This document shows positions 14,151 to 25,442 of a stretch of 64,000 bases of DNA, piece after piece. Numbering within the stretch: the first letter of the stretch is position 1; each line of letters starts with the position of its first letter. The stretch comes from an uncultured cyanobacterium (GTDB lineage: Bacteria; Cyanobacteriota; Cyanobacteriia; Cyanobacteriales; CAWCAG01), in the NCBI GenBank assembly GCA_963793425.1, contig CAWCAG010000005.1:1525178-1589177 (forward strand), written 5' to 3'. Under the pieces are notes generated by a model. That model saw only the letters and a program-made list of their open reading frames with translations, was not told where the DNA came from and ran no database searches. The position numbers and the translations under genes were made by a program.

Positions 14151-15065
14151 CTAAAGTTTATACTGCTGGAATACTTCAGTCGCTGCCTTATGTAACAAAG
14201 AATGGCGATAAATCAATCCGGACATATTCTGGGAATAACCACCACCTATCACACAAGCAACAGGATATCCTGCACTGATACAAGTAGTTAAAACTTGCAT
14301 TTCTCGCCGATAAATTCCCATATCTGTGAGGGCTAACTTCCCCAATCTATCTTCTACATGAGTATCTACCCCGGCATCATAAATAATTAAATCTGGTTGC
14401 ACTTTTGCCAATAACTCAGGTAAATGTTGAGCCAAAATTTGTAAGTAACTCTCATCATCTAAACCCATAGGCAAAGGTATATCTAAATCGCTGCTTTGTT
14501 TATGATGAGGAAAGTTAGCTTCGCAGTGCATCGAAAAAGTAAATACCCTGGGGTCGTCCTGAAAAATATAAGCAGTACCGTCTCCTTGGTGTACATCTAA
14601 ATCGACAATTAAAACTTTATTTACTAATCCCAATTTCTGTAAAACTCGCGCGGCGATCGCTAAATCATTAAAAATACAAAACCCTGAACCATAGCTAGGA
14701 AAAGCATGGTGTGTCCCACCAACTGTATTACAAGCTAAACCTCTTTTTAAAGCTAGCTGTGCGGTTAATATTGTCCCCCCAACTGCTGTACAAGTACGAT
14801 TTGCTAATTCCAGACTCCAAGGTAGCCCGATGCGCCTCTGGGCTTTGGGTTCTAAATTTCCTGAACAGTAAGCTGCAACGTAATCAGGAGTATGTACTAA
14901 TTTTAGCCATTCCTGAGATGCCGGTTCGGGAGTTTCTATTTGCGATCGCTTAACAATCTTTTTCGCCAGTAGGTATTGATATAAGCCCCCAAACTTCGGC
15001 ATCGGAAAGCGATGTCCTTCTGGTAAAGGGGCAACATAATGGGGATGATGTATAACAGGCAGCAT
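14151..15065 (-). CDS. histone deacetylase-family (acetoin utilisation/acetylpolyamine amidohydrolase-like) protein
   Basis: 304-aa ORF with class I/II HDAC motifs: GGTHHAFPSYGSGFCIFNDLAIA, DLDVHQGDGT. Confidence 0.9.
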   Translation of the reverse strand: MLPVIHHPHYVAPLPEGHRFPMPKFGGLYQYLLAKKIVKRSQIETPEPASQEWLKLVHTPDYVAAYCSGNLEPKAQRRIGLPWSLELANRTCTAVGGTILTAQLALKRGLACNTVGGTHHAFPSYGSGFCIFNDLAIAARVLQKLGLVNKVLIVDLDVHQGDGTAYIFQDDPRVFTFSMHCEANFPHHKQSSDLDIPLPMGLDDESYLQILAQHLPELLAKVQPDLIIYDAGVDTHVEDRLGKLALTDMGIYRREMQVLTTCISAGYPVACVIGGGYSQNMSGLIYRHSLLHKAATEVFQQYKL

Positions 15066-15117: not shown

Positions 15118-15690
15118 TTAATCAGGAAGAGCAAATCCTGTACGAGGATCGCGGATATATAAACCTAGTACCAAAGAGTTCATCACTGTATCCCAAACAG
15201 GGATTAACTTTTCTGCTTCATCAGCCCAATAATCAAAAGTAATCAAGCATTGAACTCCTGAACCCAAACCAATGCAGATACGAGAGTAGGCTTCTCGATC
15301 TTCTTGAGGATCAATAAACTTAATTTGAGTCCAGACAACGCGGGCGGTTTGACGCTTTAGCTGAACAATGTCTCCTCGTTCAATAACATCGCGGCTTTCA
15401 TCCTTAATCACCTTTTTCAAAAGGGGAACTAGAGGAAATTCCTTCCAGTTACCGGGGGGCAAAAGGTTGAAAGAAGCTTCTAAGCGACAATTATCATCAG
15501 GGGGTTTACCATCTAAGAAGCGAAATGATTTTTCATCTGGTTCAAAATGCCAATCATGGGGAACATCAAAGCGTAACGCCCCTCTTCCTGCGACAAAAAT
15601 CCGATTTCCTGGTTGCGATTGCCAGCGATGGTTTTCTTCTAGCTCCAGAGTTTCTTTGATCCACCGACTTTTTTTCTTACGTTTAGACAC
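15118..15690 (-). CDS. hypothetical protein
   Basis: 190-aa ORF with balanced composition, 52 nt downstream of the HDAC-like gene... it lies upstream of that gene on the same strand, so an operon is possible. The antisense 139-aa ORF (15368-15787) is Ser/Arg-rich junk. No motif recognised. Confidence 0.7.
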   Translation of the reverse strand: MSKRKKKSRWIKETLELEENHRWQSQPGNRIFVAGRGALRFDVPHDWHFEPDEKSFRFLDGKPPDDNCRLEASFNLLPPGNWKEFPLVPLLKKVIKDESRDVIERGDIVQLKRQTARVVWTQIKFIDPQEDREAYSRICIGLGSGVQCLITFDYWADEAEKLIPVWDTVMNSLVLGLYIRDPRTGFALPD

Positions 15691-15821
15691 GGCTGCCCTA
15701 ATTTTGACCTACTTTGCTTATTTTAGAGCTTACTCAGAAAAACAGGAAAGAGAGAAGAGGAAAAGCTATGTACCTCATGTGGCTTAGAATTACTATAAGT
15801 GTTCAGCATTAAACTCAATTG

Positions 15822-15998
15822 ATGAAAAAGCACCACTTCAATATTGATAGAGTTCAAGAGCCGATTATTCAAGCCCCACCTGATATTAAGAAGTTAATCG
15901 AGGGAGTTTTAGCTTTAGAAAAAGAGCGACTCCACCAAAAAGTACCGCGCAATATTAATGAAGATATTCTCAAAATAATTAAAGACGTTGTGCAATGA
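15822..15998 (+). CDS. small hypothetical protein (58 aa), translationally coupled to the downstream ATPase
   Basis: Below the ORF-track cutoff. ATG at 15822, protein MKKHHFNIDRVQEPIIQAPPDIKKLIEGVLALEKERLHQKVPRNINEDILKIIKDVVQ. Its stop TGA (15996-15998) overlaps the ATG (15995) of the next gene as ATGA. Confidence 0.5.
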   Translation: MKKHHFNIDRVQEPIIQAPPDIKKLIEGVLALEKERLHQKVPRNINEDILKIIKDVVQ

Positions 15999-18058
15999 TC
16001 TTAACATCAATTAGGTTGTGTAATTTTCGCCAATTTTATGGCAAAACTCCGGAAATGCAACTTTCAGCCGGGGAACATAACACTACTATATTTCACGGCA
16101 ATAATGGTTCCGGTAAGACCACCTTGCTCAATGCTTTCACCTGGGCTTTATATGAACAATTTACCGCTGCTTTTGCCTCTCCACAACAGTTAATTAATAA
16201 AAGAGCAATTACTGAAGCTGATTTTGGTCGTTCTGTAGATTGTTGGGTAGAAGTAATGTTTGAGCATGAACATAAACGCTATCAAGTAAAACGCCAATGT
16301 TATGCCCACAATACAGGGGAAAAAATCAACTACAGCGATACAAAATGTTTTATGCAAATTGCTGGGGATGATGGGCGTTGGTATCCGCCTTTAGAACAAC
16401 CGGAAGATGTTATTGGCAGAATTTTGCCCGTTAGTTTACATCACTATTTCTTCTTTGATGGTGAACGCATTGATCGCTTTTTTCGTCAGGATGGTAAAAG
16501 TAGTGTTGCTGAAGATACTAAGGAGTTGATTGGGGTTAAGGTCTTAGATCGGGCTATTGAGCATTTAAAAAAAGCTAAACGCAAACTGCAACAAGAACTG
16601 CAATCTGTTGGTGATTTAGAAATAAAGCAACTTTTACAAGCACAAAGCAAGTTAGAAAACCAAAGCGATCGCCTCGAAACTAGACAAGGAGAAATAGAGA
16701 CTAAATTAGCTCAGCAAGAAGAGTTTAAACAAGCTATTAATAAGCAGCTTTTAGAGTTAAGCGGTGCAGTAGAGTTGCAAAATCAGCGAGAGCAATTAGA
16801 GGAAAGAGAAAAGTCTCTACGCCATACTTTAGTGGAGAAACAAGAAAGTCTGAAAAAAATTATCTCTACTAATGGTTATACGGTTTTCTTAGAGCAGCTA
16901 TTAAGGCAATCAAGTTCTATTATTGGCACAATGCGAGGTAAGGGAGAGTTACCGACAGGAATTAAAAAACAATTTGTTCAGGAATTATTAGAGCAACATC
17001 GTTGTATTTGTGGTGGAGAACTTTTAAAAGGAAGTGAAACTCGTAAAGAAGTAGAAACTTGGCTCGATAAAGCAGGAGTTGCTGATGTCGAAGAAGCGGC
17101 CATTCGCTTAGAAACCCAAGCAGGAGAAATGGAACAGAGAATTCCTCAATTTTGGCAAGAAGTTGATCTCCGGCAAGCTAATATTGAGCAAGCCAGGACA
17201 GAATTAGGGCAGATTGATGAGCAGTTATTTACTATTAGTAAAAAGCTAAGAAATTATCCTGATCATAATATCCAAAAGTTGCAAAAGGATTTAGAAGCAA
17301 CAGAAAAGCTGATTGAACAATTAACTTTAGAAAAAGGAGGTAATCAACAGCTATTAGTTAGCTTCAACCAAGAAAACGCAGCTAAACAAAAGCAAATAGC
17401 TAAACAAAAGCTTAAAGAAGAAAAGCAATTTATTGCTCAACGCCGAATCACTGCTACCCAAGAAGCCATAGACAGAATTATGGAAGTAAAAAGACGCTTA
17501 GAAAAGCAATTTCGTCGTTCTTTAGAACAAAGAGTTCAAGAAATATTCAATTCTATTTCCTTCACTCCTTACATACCCAGATTAAGCCATGACTATGAAT
17601 TATCCTTAATAGAAAACACTTCCGGTAAAGCAATTCAAGTGGCCGCTTCTACAGGAGAAAATCAGATTCTGAGTCTTTCTTTTATAAGCGGAGTTATTGA
17701 TAGAGTTAGGGAATGGAGTTATCAAAATACTCTCATGGGACCTGATAGTAGTACTTTCCCCATTGTCATGGACTCACCTTTTGGTAGCTTAGATGAAATT
17801 TACCGTCGCCAAGTAGCAACCTCTATTCCTAAACTAGCTAATCAACTCATAGTTTTAGTAACCAAAACTCAATGGCGAGGAGAAGTAGCAGAGGAAATGG
17901 AGAACTATATTGGACAAGAATATGTCTTAGTTTATAACTCTCCTAAATCAGATTGCCAAGCAGATCAAATAGAAATTGCTGGACAAACTTATCCTCTGAT
18001 ACAACGTAGTAATAATGGCTTTGAATATACAGAAATTATTCCTGTGCAAAGGAATTAG
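15995..18058 (+). CDS. DndD/Rad50-like SMC-type ABC ATPase with long coiled coil and central CxC motif
   Basis: 687-aa ORF. N-terminal IRLCNFRQFYG...GNNGSGKTTLLNAFTWALY (Walker A), YFFFDGERI, ~330 aa of K/E/Q/L heptad-rich sequence, HRCICGGEL at aa 335-343, and C-terminal STGENQILSLSF (signature-like) plus FPIVMDSPFGSLD (Walker B/D-loop). Confidence 0.85.
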   Translation: MILTSIRLCNFRQFYGKTPEMQLSAGEHNTTIFHGNNGSGKTTLLNAFTWALYEQFTAAFASPQQLINKRAITEADFGRSVDCWVEVMFEHEHKRYQVKRQCYAHNTGEKINYSDTKCFMQIAGDDGRWYPPLEQPEDVIGRILPVSLHHYFFFDGERIDRFFRQDGKSSVAEDTKELIGVKVLDRAIEHLKKAKRKLQQELQSVGDLEIKQLLQAQSKLENQSDRLETRQGEIETKLAQQEEFKQAINKQLLELSGAVELQNQREQLEEREKSLRHTLVEKQESLKKIISTNGYTVFLEQLLRQSSSIIGTMRGKGELPTGIKKQFVQELLEQHRCICGGELLKGSETRKEVETWLDKAGVADVEEAAIRLETQAGEMEQRIPQFWQEVDLRQANIEQARTELGQIDEQLFTISKKLRNYPDHNIQKLQKDLEATEKLIEQLTLEKGGNQQLLVSFNQENAAKQKQIAKQKLKEEKQFIAQRRITATQEAIDRIMEVKRRLEKQFRRSLEQRVQEIFNSISFTPYIPRLSHDYELSLIENTSGKAIQVAASTGENQILSLSFISGVIDRVREWSYQNTLMGPDSSTFPIVMDSPFGSLDEIYRRQVATSIPKLANQLIVLVTKTQWRGEVAEEMENYIGQEYVLVYNSPKSDCQADQIEIAGQTYPLIQRSNNGFEYTEIIPVQRN

Positions 18059-18338
18059 TTACTTCCCTGCGGTCATAATTATTACTTCTTTTACCAGGAC
18101 GTTCCTTAGCCTTATTAACCCTTAATTCTCTGTTCATCCATTCTGCACCATCCAATGCTTCTATAGCTTTTGATTCTTCTTCTTCTGAGGCAAAATCTAC
18201 AAAACCAAAACCGCGCATACGACCAGTTTCTCGGTCAGTTGGAATTGCAACTCGCTTGACACTGCCGTAATCAGAAAAGATATATTTAACATCGTCTTCT
18301 GTTACGCTGTAGGGTAAGTTACCGATATAAATTGACAT
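18036..18338 (-). CDS. RRM-type RNA-binding protein (cyanobacterial Rbp)
   Basis: 100-aa ORF with RNP2 IYIGNL and RNP1 RGFGFVDF. Its 3' end overlaps the ATPase 3' end by 23 nt. Confidence 0.95.
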   Translation of the reverse strand: MSIYIGNLPYSVTEDDVKYIFSDYGSVKRVAIPTDRETGRMRGFGFVDFASEEEESKAIEALDGAEWMNRELRVNKAKERPGKRSNNYDRREVTNSFAQE

Positions 18339-21705: not shown

Positions 21706-24354
21706 CTAAACTTCTACAGGTTGAGAAGCATTACTTTCTACAGATTCCCTTTCTTTAATTAAAGCGATCGCCCCACCAACGCTTTCTGGCAAAATCACCA
21801 CTAAACCCCCTTCTGTCACCTTATCTAAGCCCACTTTAATGGCTTCAGCTTCATTGAGAATTGTCAAACAATCAGAATCAGGTTTCTTGGCGCGAATTCC
21901 TTTCACAATCAAATCAGCTACTTCACCCCGCCCCCTGCCCCTAGTATCTTCATCTTCTTTAACAATAATCTGATCAAAAAACTCTGCTGAGAGTTCCCCC
22001 AAGGCGATTAAGTCTTCATCTCGGCGATCTCCAGGGCCACCCACTACCCCTATACATTCTCCTTCCCAGTTACAGACAAAACTTCCTAAAGCAGCATAAC
22101 TCGCGGGGTTATGGGCATAATCTATCAAAGCATGACCTTTCTCTAGGGTAAAGAGATTCATTCGACCGGGAGTTTGACCCACAGAAGGGGCAAAAGTTCT
22201 TACTCCTTGGCGAATAGATTCTATTTCCACTCCTTGGGTATAAGCGGCTAAACAAGCAGCTAAGGCGTTAGCAATCATAAAAGGAGCCATTCCCCCCATA
22301 GTAATGGGAATATTAGCTGCCCGTTCAATATGTACAGTCCAGTCTCCAGAAAGGAGAGAGAGGTAGCCATTTTCATAAATAGCAGCCAAGCCCCCTTCTT
22401 TTGTATGCTCCTGTACCAAAGGGTTGTTGGGGTTCATGGAAAAATAAGCTACCTTCGCTTCCACCTGTCCCGCCATATCTGCTACTAAAGGGTCATCGGC
22501 GTTGAGAATAGCATAACCTTCCGGTCGTACCGCTTCTACCACCACGCTTTTAAGGCGGGCTAATTGTTCTATGGTATCAATATCTCCAATACCCAAATGA
22601 TCTGCGGCGACATTTAAAACTAAACCAATATCACAAAATTCAAAAGCTAAGCCGGAACGCAAGATCCCCCCACGGGCCGTTTCTAACACCGCCACCTCAA
22701 CAGTAGGGTCTTTAAGAATCACCAGAGCGCTTTGAGGCCCTGTGGTATCCCCTTTTTCCACTAAATGCCCATCAATATAAATACCATCGGTGGTGGTGTA
22801 ACCAACTACCTGCCCCGTTTGGCCATAGATATGGGCAATGAGACGGGTTGTAGTGGTTTTACCGTTAGTACCAGTGATAGAAATGATGGGAATACGGCTA
22901 GGAGTTCCTTTAGGAAAAAGCATCTCCAAAACCGGGGCCGCCACATTGCGAGGCAAACCCTTACTAGGAGAAACGTGCATCCTAAACCCAGGGGCCGCGT
23001 TAACCTCAACCACAACCCCAGATACTTCTCTTAAAGGTTTGGTGATATCTGGGGTAACCACATCTATCCCGGCAATATCTAAGCCAATTACCTTCGCAAC
23101 CCTTTCTGCTAGCCAAATATTCTCAGGATGAATATCATCGGTACGATCTACAGCAATACCACCAGTGCTTAAATTAGCGGTGGCTCTAAGATAAACAATC
23201 TTTCCTGGCTCTAAGATCGTATCAAGGTTATAGCCTTGGCGCTGTAAAACATCCGTAGCGGTTTTATCTAAAGTTATCCTAGTCAGAACATTATCATGAC
23301 CATCCCCTCTATCGGGATCACGGTTGGTTTGGTCAATCAGTTGTTGAATAGTTAACTCACCATCACCAATTACATGGGCAGGGACTCGCTCTGCTACCGC
23401 CACAAGCTTACCATCAATGAGCAAAATACGATGGTCGCTACCCCGGTAAAAACGCTCGACAATTACCCCACGAGTCTTAGCTTCTTGGCTAGCAAAATCG
23501 TAAGCTTGTTCTGCTTCTGACCAATCTTTAATATCAATGGTGATACCTCTACCGTGATTGCCATCAAGAGGCTTAATCACAATGGGATAACCCCCTAAAT
23601 CTTCAACGGCTTCTTCGAGTTCATTGAAGTAAGAAATAACCGTGCCGTTGGGTACAGGAATGCCGGCATCCCTCAAGATAGTTTTAGTTCCTTCCTTATC
23701 ACAAGCTAGTTCTACCCCTAAGATACTGGAATAGTCACTTAAGGTCGCTTGAATACGTTTTTGGTGGACTCCGTAACCTAATTGCAGCATGGCACGGGCG
23801 TTAAGGCGAAGCCAGGGAATTTTGCGGGCTTCGGCTTCCCTAACAATAGTTTCTGTACTAGGGCCGAGGGCAGAACTTTTAGCGAGATTTTCCAGATCGT
23901 CTAAATCTTGATCTAGCTCTCTAGCGGGATAAGTCCCTGCATTAATGATACTTTGACACAATCTCACGGCGGCTCTACCTGCGTAGCGCCCTGCTTGTTC
24001 ATCAAGATATTCAAAAACGACTTGATAAACTCCTGATGTACCCGTTTCCCTGGTACGACCAAAACCCACAGGCATACCTGCTAGTTCTTGCAGTTCGAGG
24101 GCTACGTGTTCGATGATGTGACCCATCATCGTTCCTTCTTGAACTCTACTGAGGAATCCTCCTCGACAGCCTGGAGAACAGTGATGTTCTACCAAACTAG
24201 GTAATACTTCAATAAGTCCTTCGTAGAAGCCCTGAATTTGATTAGAAGGCTTCTCCGCAAGCTCTTCTAAGTCTAAGCGGAGGATGATTAATTTATGCCG
24301 TCGAATGCTCCAATAATTGGGGCCGCGTAAGGTCTGGGTTTTCAGAATTCTCAT
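21706..24354 (-). CDS. cphA: cyanophycin synthetase
   Basis: The ORF track gives 905 aa from 24423. The conserved N-terminus starts at the internal Met, MRILKTQTLRGPNYWS (start 24354). It has an ATP-grasp region plus a Mur-ligase-like region (ITGTNGKTTTTRLIAHI). Confidence 0.95.
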   Translation of the reverse strand: MRILKTQTLRGPNYWSIRRHKLIILRLDLEELAEKPSNQIQGFYEGLIEVLPSLVEHHCSPGCRGGFLSRVQEGTMMGHIIEHVALELQELAGMPVGFGRTRETGTSGVYQVVFEYLDEQAGRYAGRAAVRLCQSIINAGTYPARELDQDLDDLENLAKSSALGPSTETIVREAEARKIPWLRLNARAMLQLGYGVHQKRIQATLSDYSSILGVELACDKEGTKTILRDAGIPVPNGTVISYFNELEEAVEDLGGYPIVIKPLDGNHGRGITIDIKDWSEAEQAYDFASQEAKTRGVIVERFYRGSDHRILLIDGKLVAVAERVPAHVIGDGELTIQQLIDQTNRDPDRGDGHDNVLTRITLDKTATDVLQRQGYNLDTILEPGKIVYLRATANLSTGGIAVDRTDDIHPENIWLAERVAKVIGLDIAGIDVVTPDITKPLREVSGVVVEVNAAPGFRMHVSPSKGLPRNVAAPVLEMLFPKGTPSRIPIISITGTNGKTTTTRLIAHIYGQTGQVVGYTTTDGIYIDGHLVEKGDTTGPQSALVILKDPTVEVAVLETARGGILRSGLAFEFCDIGLVLNVAADHLGIGDIDTIEQLARLKSVVVEAVRPEGYAILNADDPLVADMAGQVEAKVAYFSMNPNNPLVQEHTKEGGLAAIYENGYLSLLSGDWTVHIERAANIPITMGGMAPFMIANALAACLAAYTQGVEIESIRQGVRTFAPSVGQTPGRMNLFTLEKGHALIDYAHNPASYAALGSFVCNWEGECIGVVGGPGDRRDEDLIALGELSAEFFDQIIVKEDEDTRGRGRGEVADLIVKGIRAKKPDSDCLTILNEAEAIKVGLDKVTEGGLVVILPESVGGAIALIKERESVESNASQPVEV

Positions 24355-24575
24355 AATGATTGTAAAGTCGGACTTCGGAAGCACCAAGAAGCCATATGTT
24401 ATATCATAAGTTTCTCGCTTCAAAAAGCAATTAAACTGTTACTGATGAACGGTTTTTCAGTTATCAGTGTGAGGGCAGCCTATTTTTAAGATGTTAAGGG
24501 AGATTATTAGTCATTAGGCCACCCTAGATTATCAGTCGGGGGAATGAAAATGTAAACCTGCTGAGGATAGTAGTT

Positions 24576-25442
24576 TTAATCAGAAGACATGATTTGGCGA
24601 GATTCAACTTGATAGCGATCGCCATGACAGAGAATGTGCAGACGTAAGTTATGAATATTAAGGGGATCAGCAGTCCCCACCTTACTTTGGTTGGTATAAG
24701 ATAAGCACAAGGGATCTACGATGGTTACTGTTCCCTTACCAATAACCCGTAATATTCCATCTTTTTCAAAAACAGCACAAGTATCTTCATCAATACCGAT
24801 TCCTAAAAGATTAGGGTACATAGCAACAGCGCTAAGCAAGCGGGCCATGCGATTGCGATTGTGAAAATGTTGATCAACAATCACATCGGGGATCATGCTC
24901 AACCCTGTTGCCATATCTACTAAAGAGCGATTAGGAGACTCGCCACTGCCCCCTCCAGCAATCATACGATGCCCCATAACCGCAGCTCCCGCACTGGTTC
25001 CAGCCAAGGTTACTTCCCCTAGCTGAACTCTTTGACGTACTCGTTCGGCGATGGGAGTATCAGCCAACAAACCGCAGAGTCTAAGCTGATCTCCTCCGGT
25101 CATAAAAACCCCGGTACACTCTTCAATATATTCTTTGTAGCTGCGGTCATCTCCTTGTTGGCGATCGCGGATATCCAAGACTTTTATTTGTTTGGCTCCC
25201 ATATCTTCAAAGATACGTTCGTAGCGACCACCTGTGAGGGCTGGTTCCCTAGAAGCTGAGGGAATAATAGCGATTATGGACTCCGAACCACCTGCCCGCT
25301 TAAAAAAGTGGTGAAGAATTTCTCGCCCATGGACTTTATCTTCTGCCCCACCAATCACCAAGATGGCAGTTTTTGTTGATAGAGGCATCTTGGTTTCTGA
25401 CATTTGAGACTCCAGTTGCAACATAAGCTGGCTTTTTAACAT
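24576..25442 (-). CDS. cphB: cyanophycinase (S51 peptidase)
   Basis: 288-aa ORF with ILVIGGAEDK, FMTGGDQLRL and LAGTSAGAAVMG (catalytic Ser). It lies upstream of cphA on the same strand. The true start may be a downstream Met. Confidence 0.93.
   Translation of the reverse strand: MLKSQLMLQLESQMSETKMPLSTKTAILVIGGAEDKVHGREILHHFFKRAGGSESIIAIIPSASREPALTGGRYERIFEDMGAKQIKVLDIRDRQQGDDRSYKEYIEECTGVFMTGGDQLRLCGLLADTPIAERVRQRVQLGEVTLAGTSAGAAVMGHRMIAGGGSGESPNRSLVDMATGLSMIPDVIVDQHFHNRNRMARLLSAVAMYPNLLGIGIDEDTCAVFEKDGILRVIGKGTVTIVDPLCLSYTNQSKVGTADPLNIHNLRLHILCHGDRYQVESRQIMSSD

Follow-up and report, generated by a model that had tools for sequence, protein, structure and literature searches.

A small gene overlaps an ATPase gene in a cyanobacterial genome

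The stretch of DNA analysed here (the window) comprises 64 kb of contig CAWCAG010000005.1 from an uncultured cyanobacterium and carries two overlapping genes related to pbeB and pbeC of the PbeABCD system: a 58-codon open reading frame (ORF), hereafter the small ORF, and the gene for a coiled-coil ATP-binding cassette (ABC) ATPase with a CxC motif at its apex (Table 1). The 3' end of the small ORF reads ...GTGCAATGA, its stop codon overlapping the start codon of the ATPase gene in an ATGA junction, which suggests translational coupling of the two, and an in-frame TTG lies at 15819, one codon 5' of the small-ORF ATG. Both genes and their overlap had been read from the letters in a preliminary description of this DNA and are confirmed by the ORF list and the sequence, as is the layout of the flanks given there (an HDAC-like gene and a divergent 190-aa gene upstream, and a convergent RRM RNA-binding-protein gene that overlaps the 3' end). 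The same description called the small ORF unannotated, whereas public records hold it as the 58-aa 'hypothetical protein WA865_07985' of a Spirulinaceae metagenome-assembled genome (MAG), to which an 'AAA family ATPase' 100% identical to that of the window also belongs.

Table 1. Positions of the small ORF, the ATPase gene with its motifs and the adjoining genes in the window
Feature	Position	Strand	Remarks
Small ORF	15822-15998	+	58 codons from ATG; ORF list and sequence
PbeC-type CxC zinc-hook (presumed) ABC ATPase gene	15995-18058	+	687 aa
ATGA junction, small-ORF stop / ATPase start overlap	15995-15998	+	sequence
Walker A / P-loop GNNGSGKTT	16097-16123	+	aa 35-43; G38, G40, K41 and T42 invariant (72/72)
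FFFDGE motif, N-terminal half-head	16448-16465	+	aa 152-157; invariant in 71-72 of 72
Ascending coiled-coil arm	16496-16939	+	aa 168-315; long helices predicted by AlphaFold2
CxC motif C337-I-C339, presumed zinc hook	17003-17011	+	C337 in 72/72 and C339 in 71/72 homologues
Descending coiled-coil arm	17081-17557	+	aa 363-521; AlphaFold2 secondary structure
ABC signature-like STGENQ	17648-17665	+	aa 552-557; S552, G554, E555 and Q557 invariant (72/72)
Walker B and D-loop PIVMDSPFGSLD	17759-17794	+	aa 589-600; M592, D593, S594, F596, G597 and L599 in 72/72
HDAC-like gene	14151-15065	-	PF00850, E 1.8e-61
190-aa gene, divergent from the small ORF	15118-15690	-	without family match
RRM RNA-binding-protein gene, convergent	18036-18338	-	overlaps the ATPase 3' end

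The ATPase is of the PbeC type

Profile searches with PADLOC decided the identity of the ATPase as PbeC, because the PbeC models score far above the DndD models. The top match is PbeC PDLC02753 (E 1.8e-299, 992.7 bits), aligned over profile positions 1-647 of 648, and the best 14 matches are all PbeC, while the DndD models reach about 150 bits with a best E of 4e-44; the 25 best matches are all PbeC or DndD, with JetC and LmuB absent from them. Pfam gives generic matches to AAA_23, AAA_15 and SMC_N. The NCBIfam DndD model TIGR03185 aligns with the protein end to end (E 3.8e-50) with a score of 171 bits, short of its cutoff of 245.85, and the Rad50 and SbcC models (32-37 bits against cutoffs of 478-1087) and SMC_prok_A (25.8 bits against 729) fall far short of theirs. 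Searches of PDB sequences with the ATPase and PbeD profiles returned nothing relevant. Among the families named in the preliminary description, AAA_23, AAA_15 and SMC_N are therefore recovered whereas TIGR03185 falls short, and its reading of a Rad50/DndD-like coiled-coil ABC ATPase with an apical cysteine motif agrees with the Pfam and NCBIfam matches, the predicted structure and the Foldseek search. Its statement that the pair was not a nameable system has to be given up, as the ATPase is PbeC and the small protein encoded upstream takes the position described for PbeB, also called SP.

An AlphaFold2 (AF2) model of the ATPase (mean predicted local distance difference test, pLDDT, of 70, built on an alignment of 34 close homologues) places half-heads at aa 1-165 and 526-687, split by helical arms and an apex. 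The FFFDGE motif extends to FFFDGERI (aa 152-159), and C337-I-C339, within HRCICGGEL (aa 335-343), falls into the non-helical stretch at the apex (aa 316-362) that joins the two arms, where it would form the presumed zinc hook. The Walker B and D-loop segment IVMDSPFGSLD (aa 590-600) is of a 'DSP' form, without the catalytic glutamate directly after the aspartate, Ser594 taking that place in 72/72 homologues. Conservation was scored over 72 homologues, and the motifs quoted in the preliminary description all sit at the residues assigned to them and are essentially invariant, including K41, C337 and D593 (72/72 each) and C339 (71/72). A small, beta-rich and conserved C-terminal extension (aa 641-687, 17915-18055) was also seen in the ATPase; it comprises the last ~40 residues, which run past the end of the PADLOC PbeC profile, and all 34 close homologues share Y643, Y647, S649-P650-K651, Y666 and E677.

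The nearest solved folds found by Foldseek are Rad50, JetC, SMC, MukB and LmuB, with Rad50 the best (E 3e-12). Assignment of the window ATPase to Rad50/SbcC, SMC, JetC or LmuB is nevertheless ruled out by scores, hook type, arm length and partners. Rad50 and SbcC likewise carry a cysteine-based zinc hook at the apex of an antiparallel coiled coil that divides the ABC head, but their hook is CxxC where that of the window protein is CxC, the arms of the window protein are much shorter (~150 residues each), and a Mre11/SbcD nuclease partner is missing from its neighbourhood. Wadjet JetC and Lamassu LmuB are coiled-coil ABC ATPases that act against foreign DNA with small accessory subunits and have structurally similar heads, but the window lacks genes for a kleisin, a KITE protein or a nuclease (JetABD, LmuA). 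SMC proteins proper have a hinge domain, 800-1000 residues of coiled coil and kleisin partners, as against an apex of ~45 residues with CxC in the window protein. DndD, compared as the DndD-DndE pair (TIGR03185 / TIGR03184), resembles the ATPase in its end-to-end alignment, comparable Walker A and overall length; it differs in that the window protein scores below the DndD cutoff and has a CxC hook, and in that DndE, DndC and DndA genes are absent nearby. The architecture expected of PbeC, in which a coiled-coil insert of ~350-400 residues interrupts a head with Walker A, signature and Walker B/D-loop, is present.

The small ORF is conserved next to the ATPase

We fetched loci round homologues (2 genomic, 80 metagenomic and 11 via exact-protein look-up; numbered L001 onwards) and found a small-ORF homologue directly upstream of the ATPase gene in 83 of the 88 loci that include upstream DNA. 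The 4-nt ATGA overlap recurs in about 69 of 82 related loci, the remainder being spaced by -14 to +184 nt. A 50-aa core of the small protein is strongly conserved across 70 distinct sequences (consensus vqePIt.AppEvrqIIerVl.lEKdkLy.k.pr.INdDIL.IiKe.vq); in the small protein, two predicted helices come after a conserved N-terminal peptide, VQEPIxxAP. The AF2 model, which rests on a shallow alignment of 3 sequences and has a mean pLDDT of 66.7, gives an irregular stretch of 19 residues at the start, helices at aa 20-39 and 45-57, and no beta strand. The ratio of nonsynonymous to synonymous substitution rates (dN/dS, or omega) is 0.0-0.47 for the small-ORF core, mostly <0.2, and 0.06-0.17 for the ATPase. 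In loci that hold the pair only, omega for the ATPase and the small ORF is 0.117 and 0.35 between the window and L001, and 0.13 between L014 and L016. Purifying selection on the small ORF, which the preliminary description had proposed to check, is thus upheld, whereas the ATGA junction proved to be usual rather than universal.

A profile search of 1.84 billion cluster representatives yielded a small-protein family of 135 clusters (50% identity), nearly all of them stand-alone proteins of 29-110 aa; informative domain fusions were absent among the 135 clusters, one repeat match being spurious. The small ORF has no meaningful match in Pfam, NCBIfam or PADLOC, and Foldseek found no match in the PDB for its model. 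It is cut short in two loci, L077 and L082. On the strength of its position, sequence conservation and dN/dS, the small ORF is a true family at the PbeB position and no chance ORF, and we call it PbeB-like by position and by its homologues in four-gene loci, the Haloterrigena PbeB having been compared by description only. In one clade (L002, L017, L020, L024, L046, L063, L069, L071 and L085) the small-ORF frame extends ~30 codons further upstream, and this extension is conserved (..FRYxDSAIAP..ILAEKRSSYHTDKDL..); to judge from these frames, the small protein of the L002/L017/L020 clade is probably ~85-95 aa long.

Related loci encode PbeA and PbeD beside the pair

The pbeABCD genes were described by Xiong et al. 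in 2019 as a four-gene cassette, all four genes being needed to block replication of the virus SNJ1; PbeA is a helicase, PbeB a 66-aa protein encoded between pbeA and pbeC and essential for protection, PbeC an SMC-like ATPase and PbeD a protein of 152 aa (PMC6459918). Protection against virus or foreign DNA has been shown experimentally only for the Haloterrigena jeotgali pbeABCD with dndCDEA, and 58% of pbeAC pairs in that study also lack dndCD nearby (PMC6459918). In a 2024 study from the Aravind laboratory, PbeC is classed as the 'CxC ABC ATPase', which forms a sister clade to DndD and is defined by the apical CxC zinc hook, which DndD lacks; PbeB is the small protein 'SP', PbeD a clade-2 DndE and PbeA an HKD nuclease fused to a superfamily 2 (SF2) helicase (PMC10853773). 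The same study calls the DndE cognate (PbeD) universally linked to CxC ATPases and credits the first description of the CxC ABC-ATPase-centred system to Krishnan et al. 2020 (PMC10853773).

Contrary to the preliminary description, which saw the pair as an orphan module, known effector genes do lie beside its orthologues. Clustering of the flanking ORFs gave two dominant partners, with counts taken over the first 86 loci: PbeA upstream on the same strand in 41, and a PbeD/DndE-like gene (~155 aa) downstream on the same strand in 32. The upstream gene scores 639-664 bits with TIGR04095 'DNA phosphorothioation system restriction enzyme', whose cutoff is 600, and PADLOC likewise identifies it as PbeA (E 1.8e-248); the downstream gene is identified by TIGR04062 dnd_assoc_4 (109-198 bits against a cutoff of 74), and in distant loci it stands exactly at the PbeD position with a spacing of -34 to +5 nt. 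The most distant relatives (L072, L074, L076, L078 and L081; ATPase 38-41% identical) encode, in this order, PbeA (700-740 aa), the small ORF, the ATPase and a 150-170-aa protein, and their small ORFs are recognisably homologous to that of the window.

PbeA comes in two forms. Full-length PbeA (700-740 aa, PLDc_2 + ResIII + Helicase_C) is found in distant lineages whose ATPases are 38-53% identical to that of the window, while a helicase-only PbeA of 460-530 aa, without the PLD/HKD nuclease domain, occurs in the cyanobacterial lineages nearer the window. The latter is very common and highly conserved in cyanobacteria, with ~8000 matches below E 1e-20, the best 120 at 68-78% identity to the query. 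Cyanobacterial PbeA covers positions 245-680 only of the PADLOC PbeA profile (L008:3402-4790, L002:3839-5419 and L087:5349-6860; contrast L047:2593-4809).

The components are also found apart. PbeA stands alone in Gloeothece citriformis PCC 7424 (L091, CP001291); at L093 (7001-8819) PbeA is followed by a bona fide 57-aa small ORF without the ATPase; and at L088 and L090 (8001-10097) the ATPase has no small ORF to accompany it within 8 kb. A single genome can thus hold the components at scattered sites. At L092 (8702-10764), where PbeA and the small ORF lie upstream, the ATPase is annotated as two genes encoding 178 and 506 aa, the product of a frameshift in a pseudogene or else of an error in long-read assembly.

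Genes for DndB/DGQHR, Uma2, MazG-like, LexA and HNH proteins recur more rarely, and dndA, dndC and dndE are found neither in the window nor among the recurrent neighbours of its relatives. In ~18 loci that also have PbeD, DndB/DGQHR genes (PF14072, TIGR03187) are found downstream in the opposite orientation, for example L046:9682-11274 (-) and L053:8940-10115 (-). A Uma2-family gene (PF05685, putative restriction endonuclease-like) repeatedly adjoins the pair (L003:7101-7718, L005:7192-7824, L087:6943-7692 and L013:7060-7701), upstream in Pleurocapsa, Gloeothece and a Xenococcaceae MAG and downstream in other loci.

The window locus is reduced to the pair

In the window the pair stands among other genes. 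The product of the divergent 190-aa gene has no meaningful match in Pfam, NCBIfam or PADLOC; the gene is near-unchanged in L001, the closest relative, and recurs beside the pair in no other locus, for which reason we left it out of the module. The ATPase and RRM genes overlap by 23 nt at their 3' ends (18036-18058), an arrangement shared with L001. The wider flanks are of a housekeeping kind (M23/LysM peptidase, SpoU methylase, GCS2, MscS, OprB porin, SLH-DUF3370 and TrmD). The pair is linked to no self-marking module (dndCDEA or a DNA methylase): a DndB-like gene is absent from the window and the flanking Pfam assignments are housekeeping. Homologues of the Uma2, MazG-like and LexA families that recur near relatives are also absent from the 64 kb, and a promoter and terminator scan near the operon gave sites no commoner than in shuffled sequence. 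Further along (window 21706-25442, - strand), a cyanophycin synthetase gene (PF18921 + Mur ligase domains) adjoins a Peptidase_S51 cyanophycinase-like gene, an ordinary cyanobacterial nitrogen-storage pair.

Neighbour-joining trees of the ATPase, which are rough, have deep branches in which all four genes are present and tightly packed, and middle cyanobacterial clades in which the pair is accompanied by PbeD and a PbeA devoid of the nuclease domain, frequently along with insertions and a gene for DndB. Within these trees the window groups with L001 (87% identity), Pleurocapsa PCC 7327, Gloeothece verrucosa PCC 7822, Lusitaniella coriacea and Spirulina subsalsa in a clade of 26 members. Downstream of the pair, the window, L001 and L006 share the same RRM and SLH-DUF3370 genes, which indicates vertical descent of the reduced locus, a pattern that agrees with the report by Jian et al. 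(2021) of a cyanobacterial 'DndD' that is monophyletic, vertically inherited and found in incomplete and disordered clusters (PMC8569181). Selection on both genes is equally strong in the 26-member clade and in complete loci, which argues that the pair is no decaying remnant.

The pair as the probable PbeB-PbeC core

Taken together, we consider it highly probable that the pair is the PbeB-PbeC core of a PbeABCD (CxC ABC-ATPase-centred) system, in a vertically inherited cyanobacterial lineage in which PbeA and PbeD are unlinked from it. The likeness to PbeABCD lies in the ATPase, a full-length PbeC by hidden Markov model (HMM) with an invariant CxC apex, in the ~57-aa protein encoded immediately upstream of it, like pbeB, and in the gene order pbeA, small ORF, pbeC, pbeD of the distant relatives. 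To judge from purifying selection, which extends to loci that hold the pair only, and from catalytic motifs that are all intact, the pair remains functional in the window genome. As for its partners, we lean slightly towards the pair working with proteins encoded elsewhere in the genome rather than alone, because PbeA, the small ORF and the ATPase are split in L091, L093, L088 and L090.

Several observations weigh against this assignment. Of the parts that define PbeABCD, the window has the small protein upstream of the ATPase but lacks an adjacent PbeA and an adjacent PbeD/DndE; moreover, tblastn with 16 PbeA sequences and with 32 PbeD-like proteins found no match anywhere in the 64 kb, and DndB, HNH, other dnd homologues and methylase genes are likewise missing from it, so that the lack of effector genes pointed out in the preliminary description for the flanks holds for the entire window. 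The flanks are housekeeping genes, which is unusual for a defence system, and the locus is vertically inherited and forms no defence island as PbeABCD would; where cyanobacterial PbeA is present, it differs from that of PbeABCD in lacking the HKD nuclease domain. No member of the 26-member clade that has enough flanking DNA encodes PbeD within 3.5-8 kb, and PbeA is adjacent in two members only, L028 and L087. The small protein of the window is well conserved, whereas the published PbeB/SP is rapidly evolving and mostly disordered (PMC10853773). Finally, zinc binding, dimerisation and contact between small protein and ATPase are all properties that we infer for the cyanobacterial members.

A rival reading is that of an autonomous module. 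PbeA and PbeD would then be truly absent from the genomes of the clade, and the small protein and the CxC ATPase would form a domesticated two-gene SMC-like machine with a task outside defence, for example in chromosome or plasmid maintenance or in DNA-damage surveillance. Such a module would fit the occurrence of the bare pair across several genera of the 26-member clade (the Spirulinaceae MAG, Pleurocapsa PCC 7327, Gloeothece verrucosa, Lusitaniella and Spirulina subsalsa), selection equal to that in complete loci, the housekeeping flanks with their RRM and SLH-DUF3370 synteny in the window, L001 and L006, the reported monophyly and vertical inheritance of the cyanobacterial 'DndD' (PMC8569181), and a cyanobacterial PbeA that has already lost its HKD nuclease domain. 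We nonetheless regard it as rather unlikely, as the split loci elsewhere show that the components tolerate dispersal, and two members of the clade itself, L087 (67% identity) and L028, keep PbeA beside the pair.

That the small ORF instead encodes a DNA-binding ribbon-helix-helix (RHH) protein, a 'half-DndE', or an antitoxin-like regulator that stands in for PbeD, is very improbable. The arrangement of a short conserved N-terminal segment and then two helices bears a superficial likeness to an RHH monomer, and an antitoxin-like role had been floated in the preliminary description, but hhalign against the PbeD profile gave a probability of 0.1%, the AF2 model is strandless and matchless in the PDB by Foldseek, the Pfam, NCBIfam and PADLOC searches were empty, and complete loci contain both the small ORF and PbeD, so that the one does not replace the other. 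The RHH or 'half-DndE' identity was rejected on the hhalign, AF2 and Foldseek results.

We find it scarcely credible that the pair is a decaying remnant, left behind by deletion of pbeA and pbeD and no longer functional. Two of the four genes that are indispensable according to Xiong et al. (PMC6459918) are missing locally, and degenerate cases exist elsewhere in the split ATPase of L092 and the truncated small ORFs of L077 and L082; against decay in the window, neither ORF is interrupted, omega is ~0.1 both for the window compared with L001 and across the genera that hold only the pair, the ATPase motifs and the CxC are invariant, and the ATGA junction has been kept. Lastly, the ATPase is almost certainly not a canonical DndD of a dndABCDE phosphorothioate-modification system, even though many homologues bear the JGI label 'DNA sulfur modification protein DndD', the TIGR03185 alignment runs end to end and DndB (DGQHR) genes lie near some related loci, as it scores below the DndD cutoff and far better with PbeC models, carries the CxC that DndD is described as lacking (PMC10853773), and has no dndA, dndC or dndE around it or its relatives.

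A possible mechanism for the PbeB-PbeC pair

From knowledge of the family we infer the following mechanism. Each ATPase would fold back on itself to form an ABC head with an antiparallel coiled coil ~150 residues long, and two such proteins would join tail to tail through zinc held by their apical CxC motifs, in the style of the Rad50 hook; ATP-driven engagement of the heads would then enable the dimer to clamp DNA, form loops in it or scan it. The small protein, its amount tied to that of the ATPase by translational coupling, could act as a subunit of fixed stoichiometry, a two-helix hairpin with a conserved N-terminal peptide that, in the capacity of regulator or adaptor, probably binds the ATPase or connects it to PbeA. 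The latter role is suggested as possible by the small ORF accompanying PbeA at L093 and the ATPase in the window, where PbeA is gone; the small protein may thus bridge PbeA and the ATPase. In complete systems, PbeA would be the motor or effector (translocating with or without cleavage) and PbeD would recognise DNA, with replication of the invading DNA being blocked as the outcome.

Implications for PbeABCD in cyanobacteria

While the identity of the PbeB-PbeC pair is known, two aspects are modestly new: the small ORF and the ATPase are the most widely persisting part of the system in cyanobacteria, and a sizeable clade keeps this dyad under purifying selection, amid housekeeping genes and without the DndE-like gene, a partner described as universal in the literature. 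That the small ORF and the ATPase persist most widely argues for the small protein, not DndE, as the most consistent neighbour of the CxC ATPase in this lineage, and this persistence qualifies the published view of a universal ATPase-DndE dyad. If the pair does not work alone, dispersed cyanobacterial Pbe systems will escape defence callers for which all four genes are obligatory; if it does, a defence motor would have been domesticated for a chromosomal task, and this would be the first CxC ATPase shown working without DndE. The cyanobacterial lineage thus offers a natural dissection of PbeABCD, in which the helicase and PbeD are present in some loci and absent from others, and the nuclease domain has already been lost.

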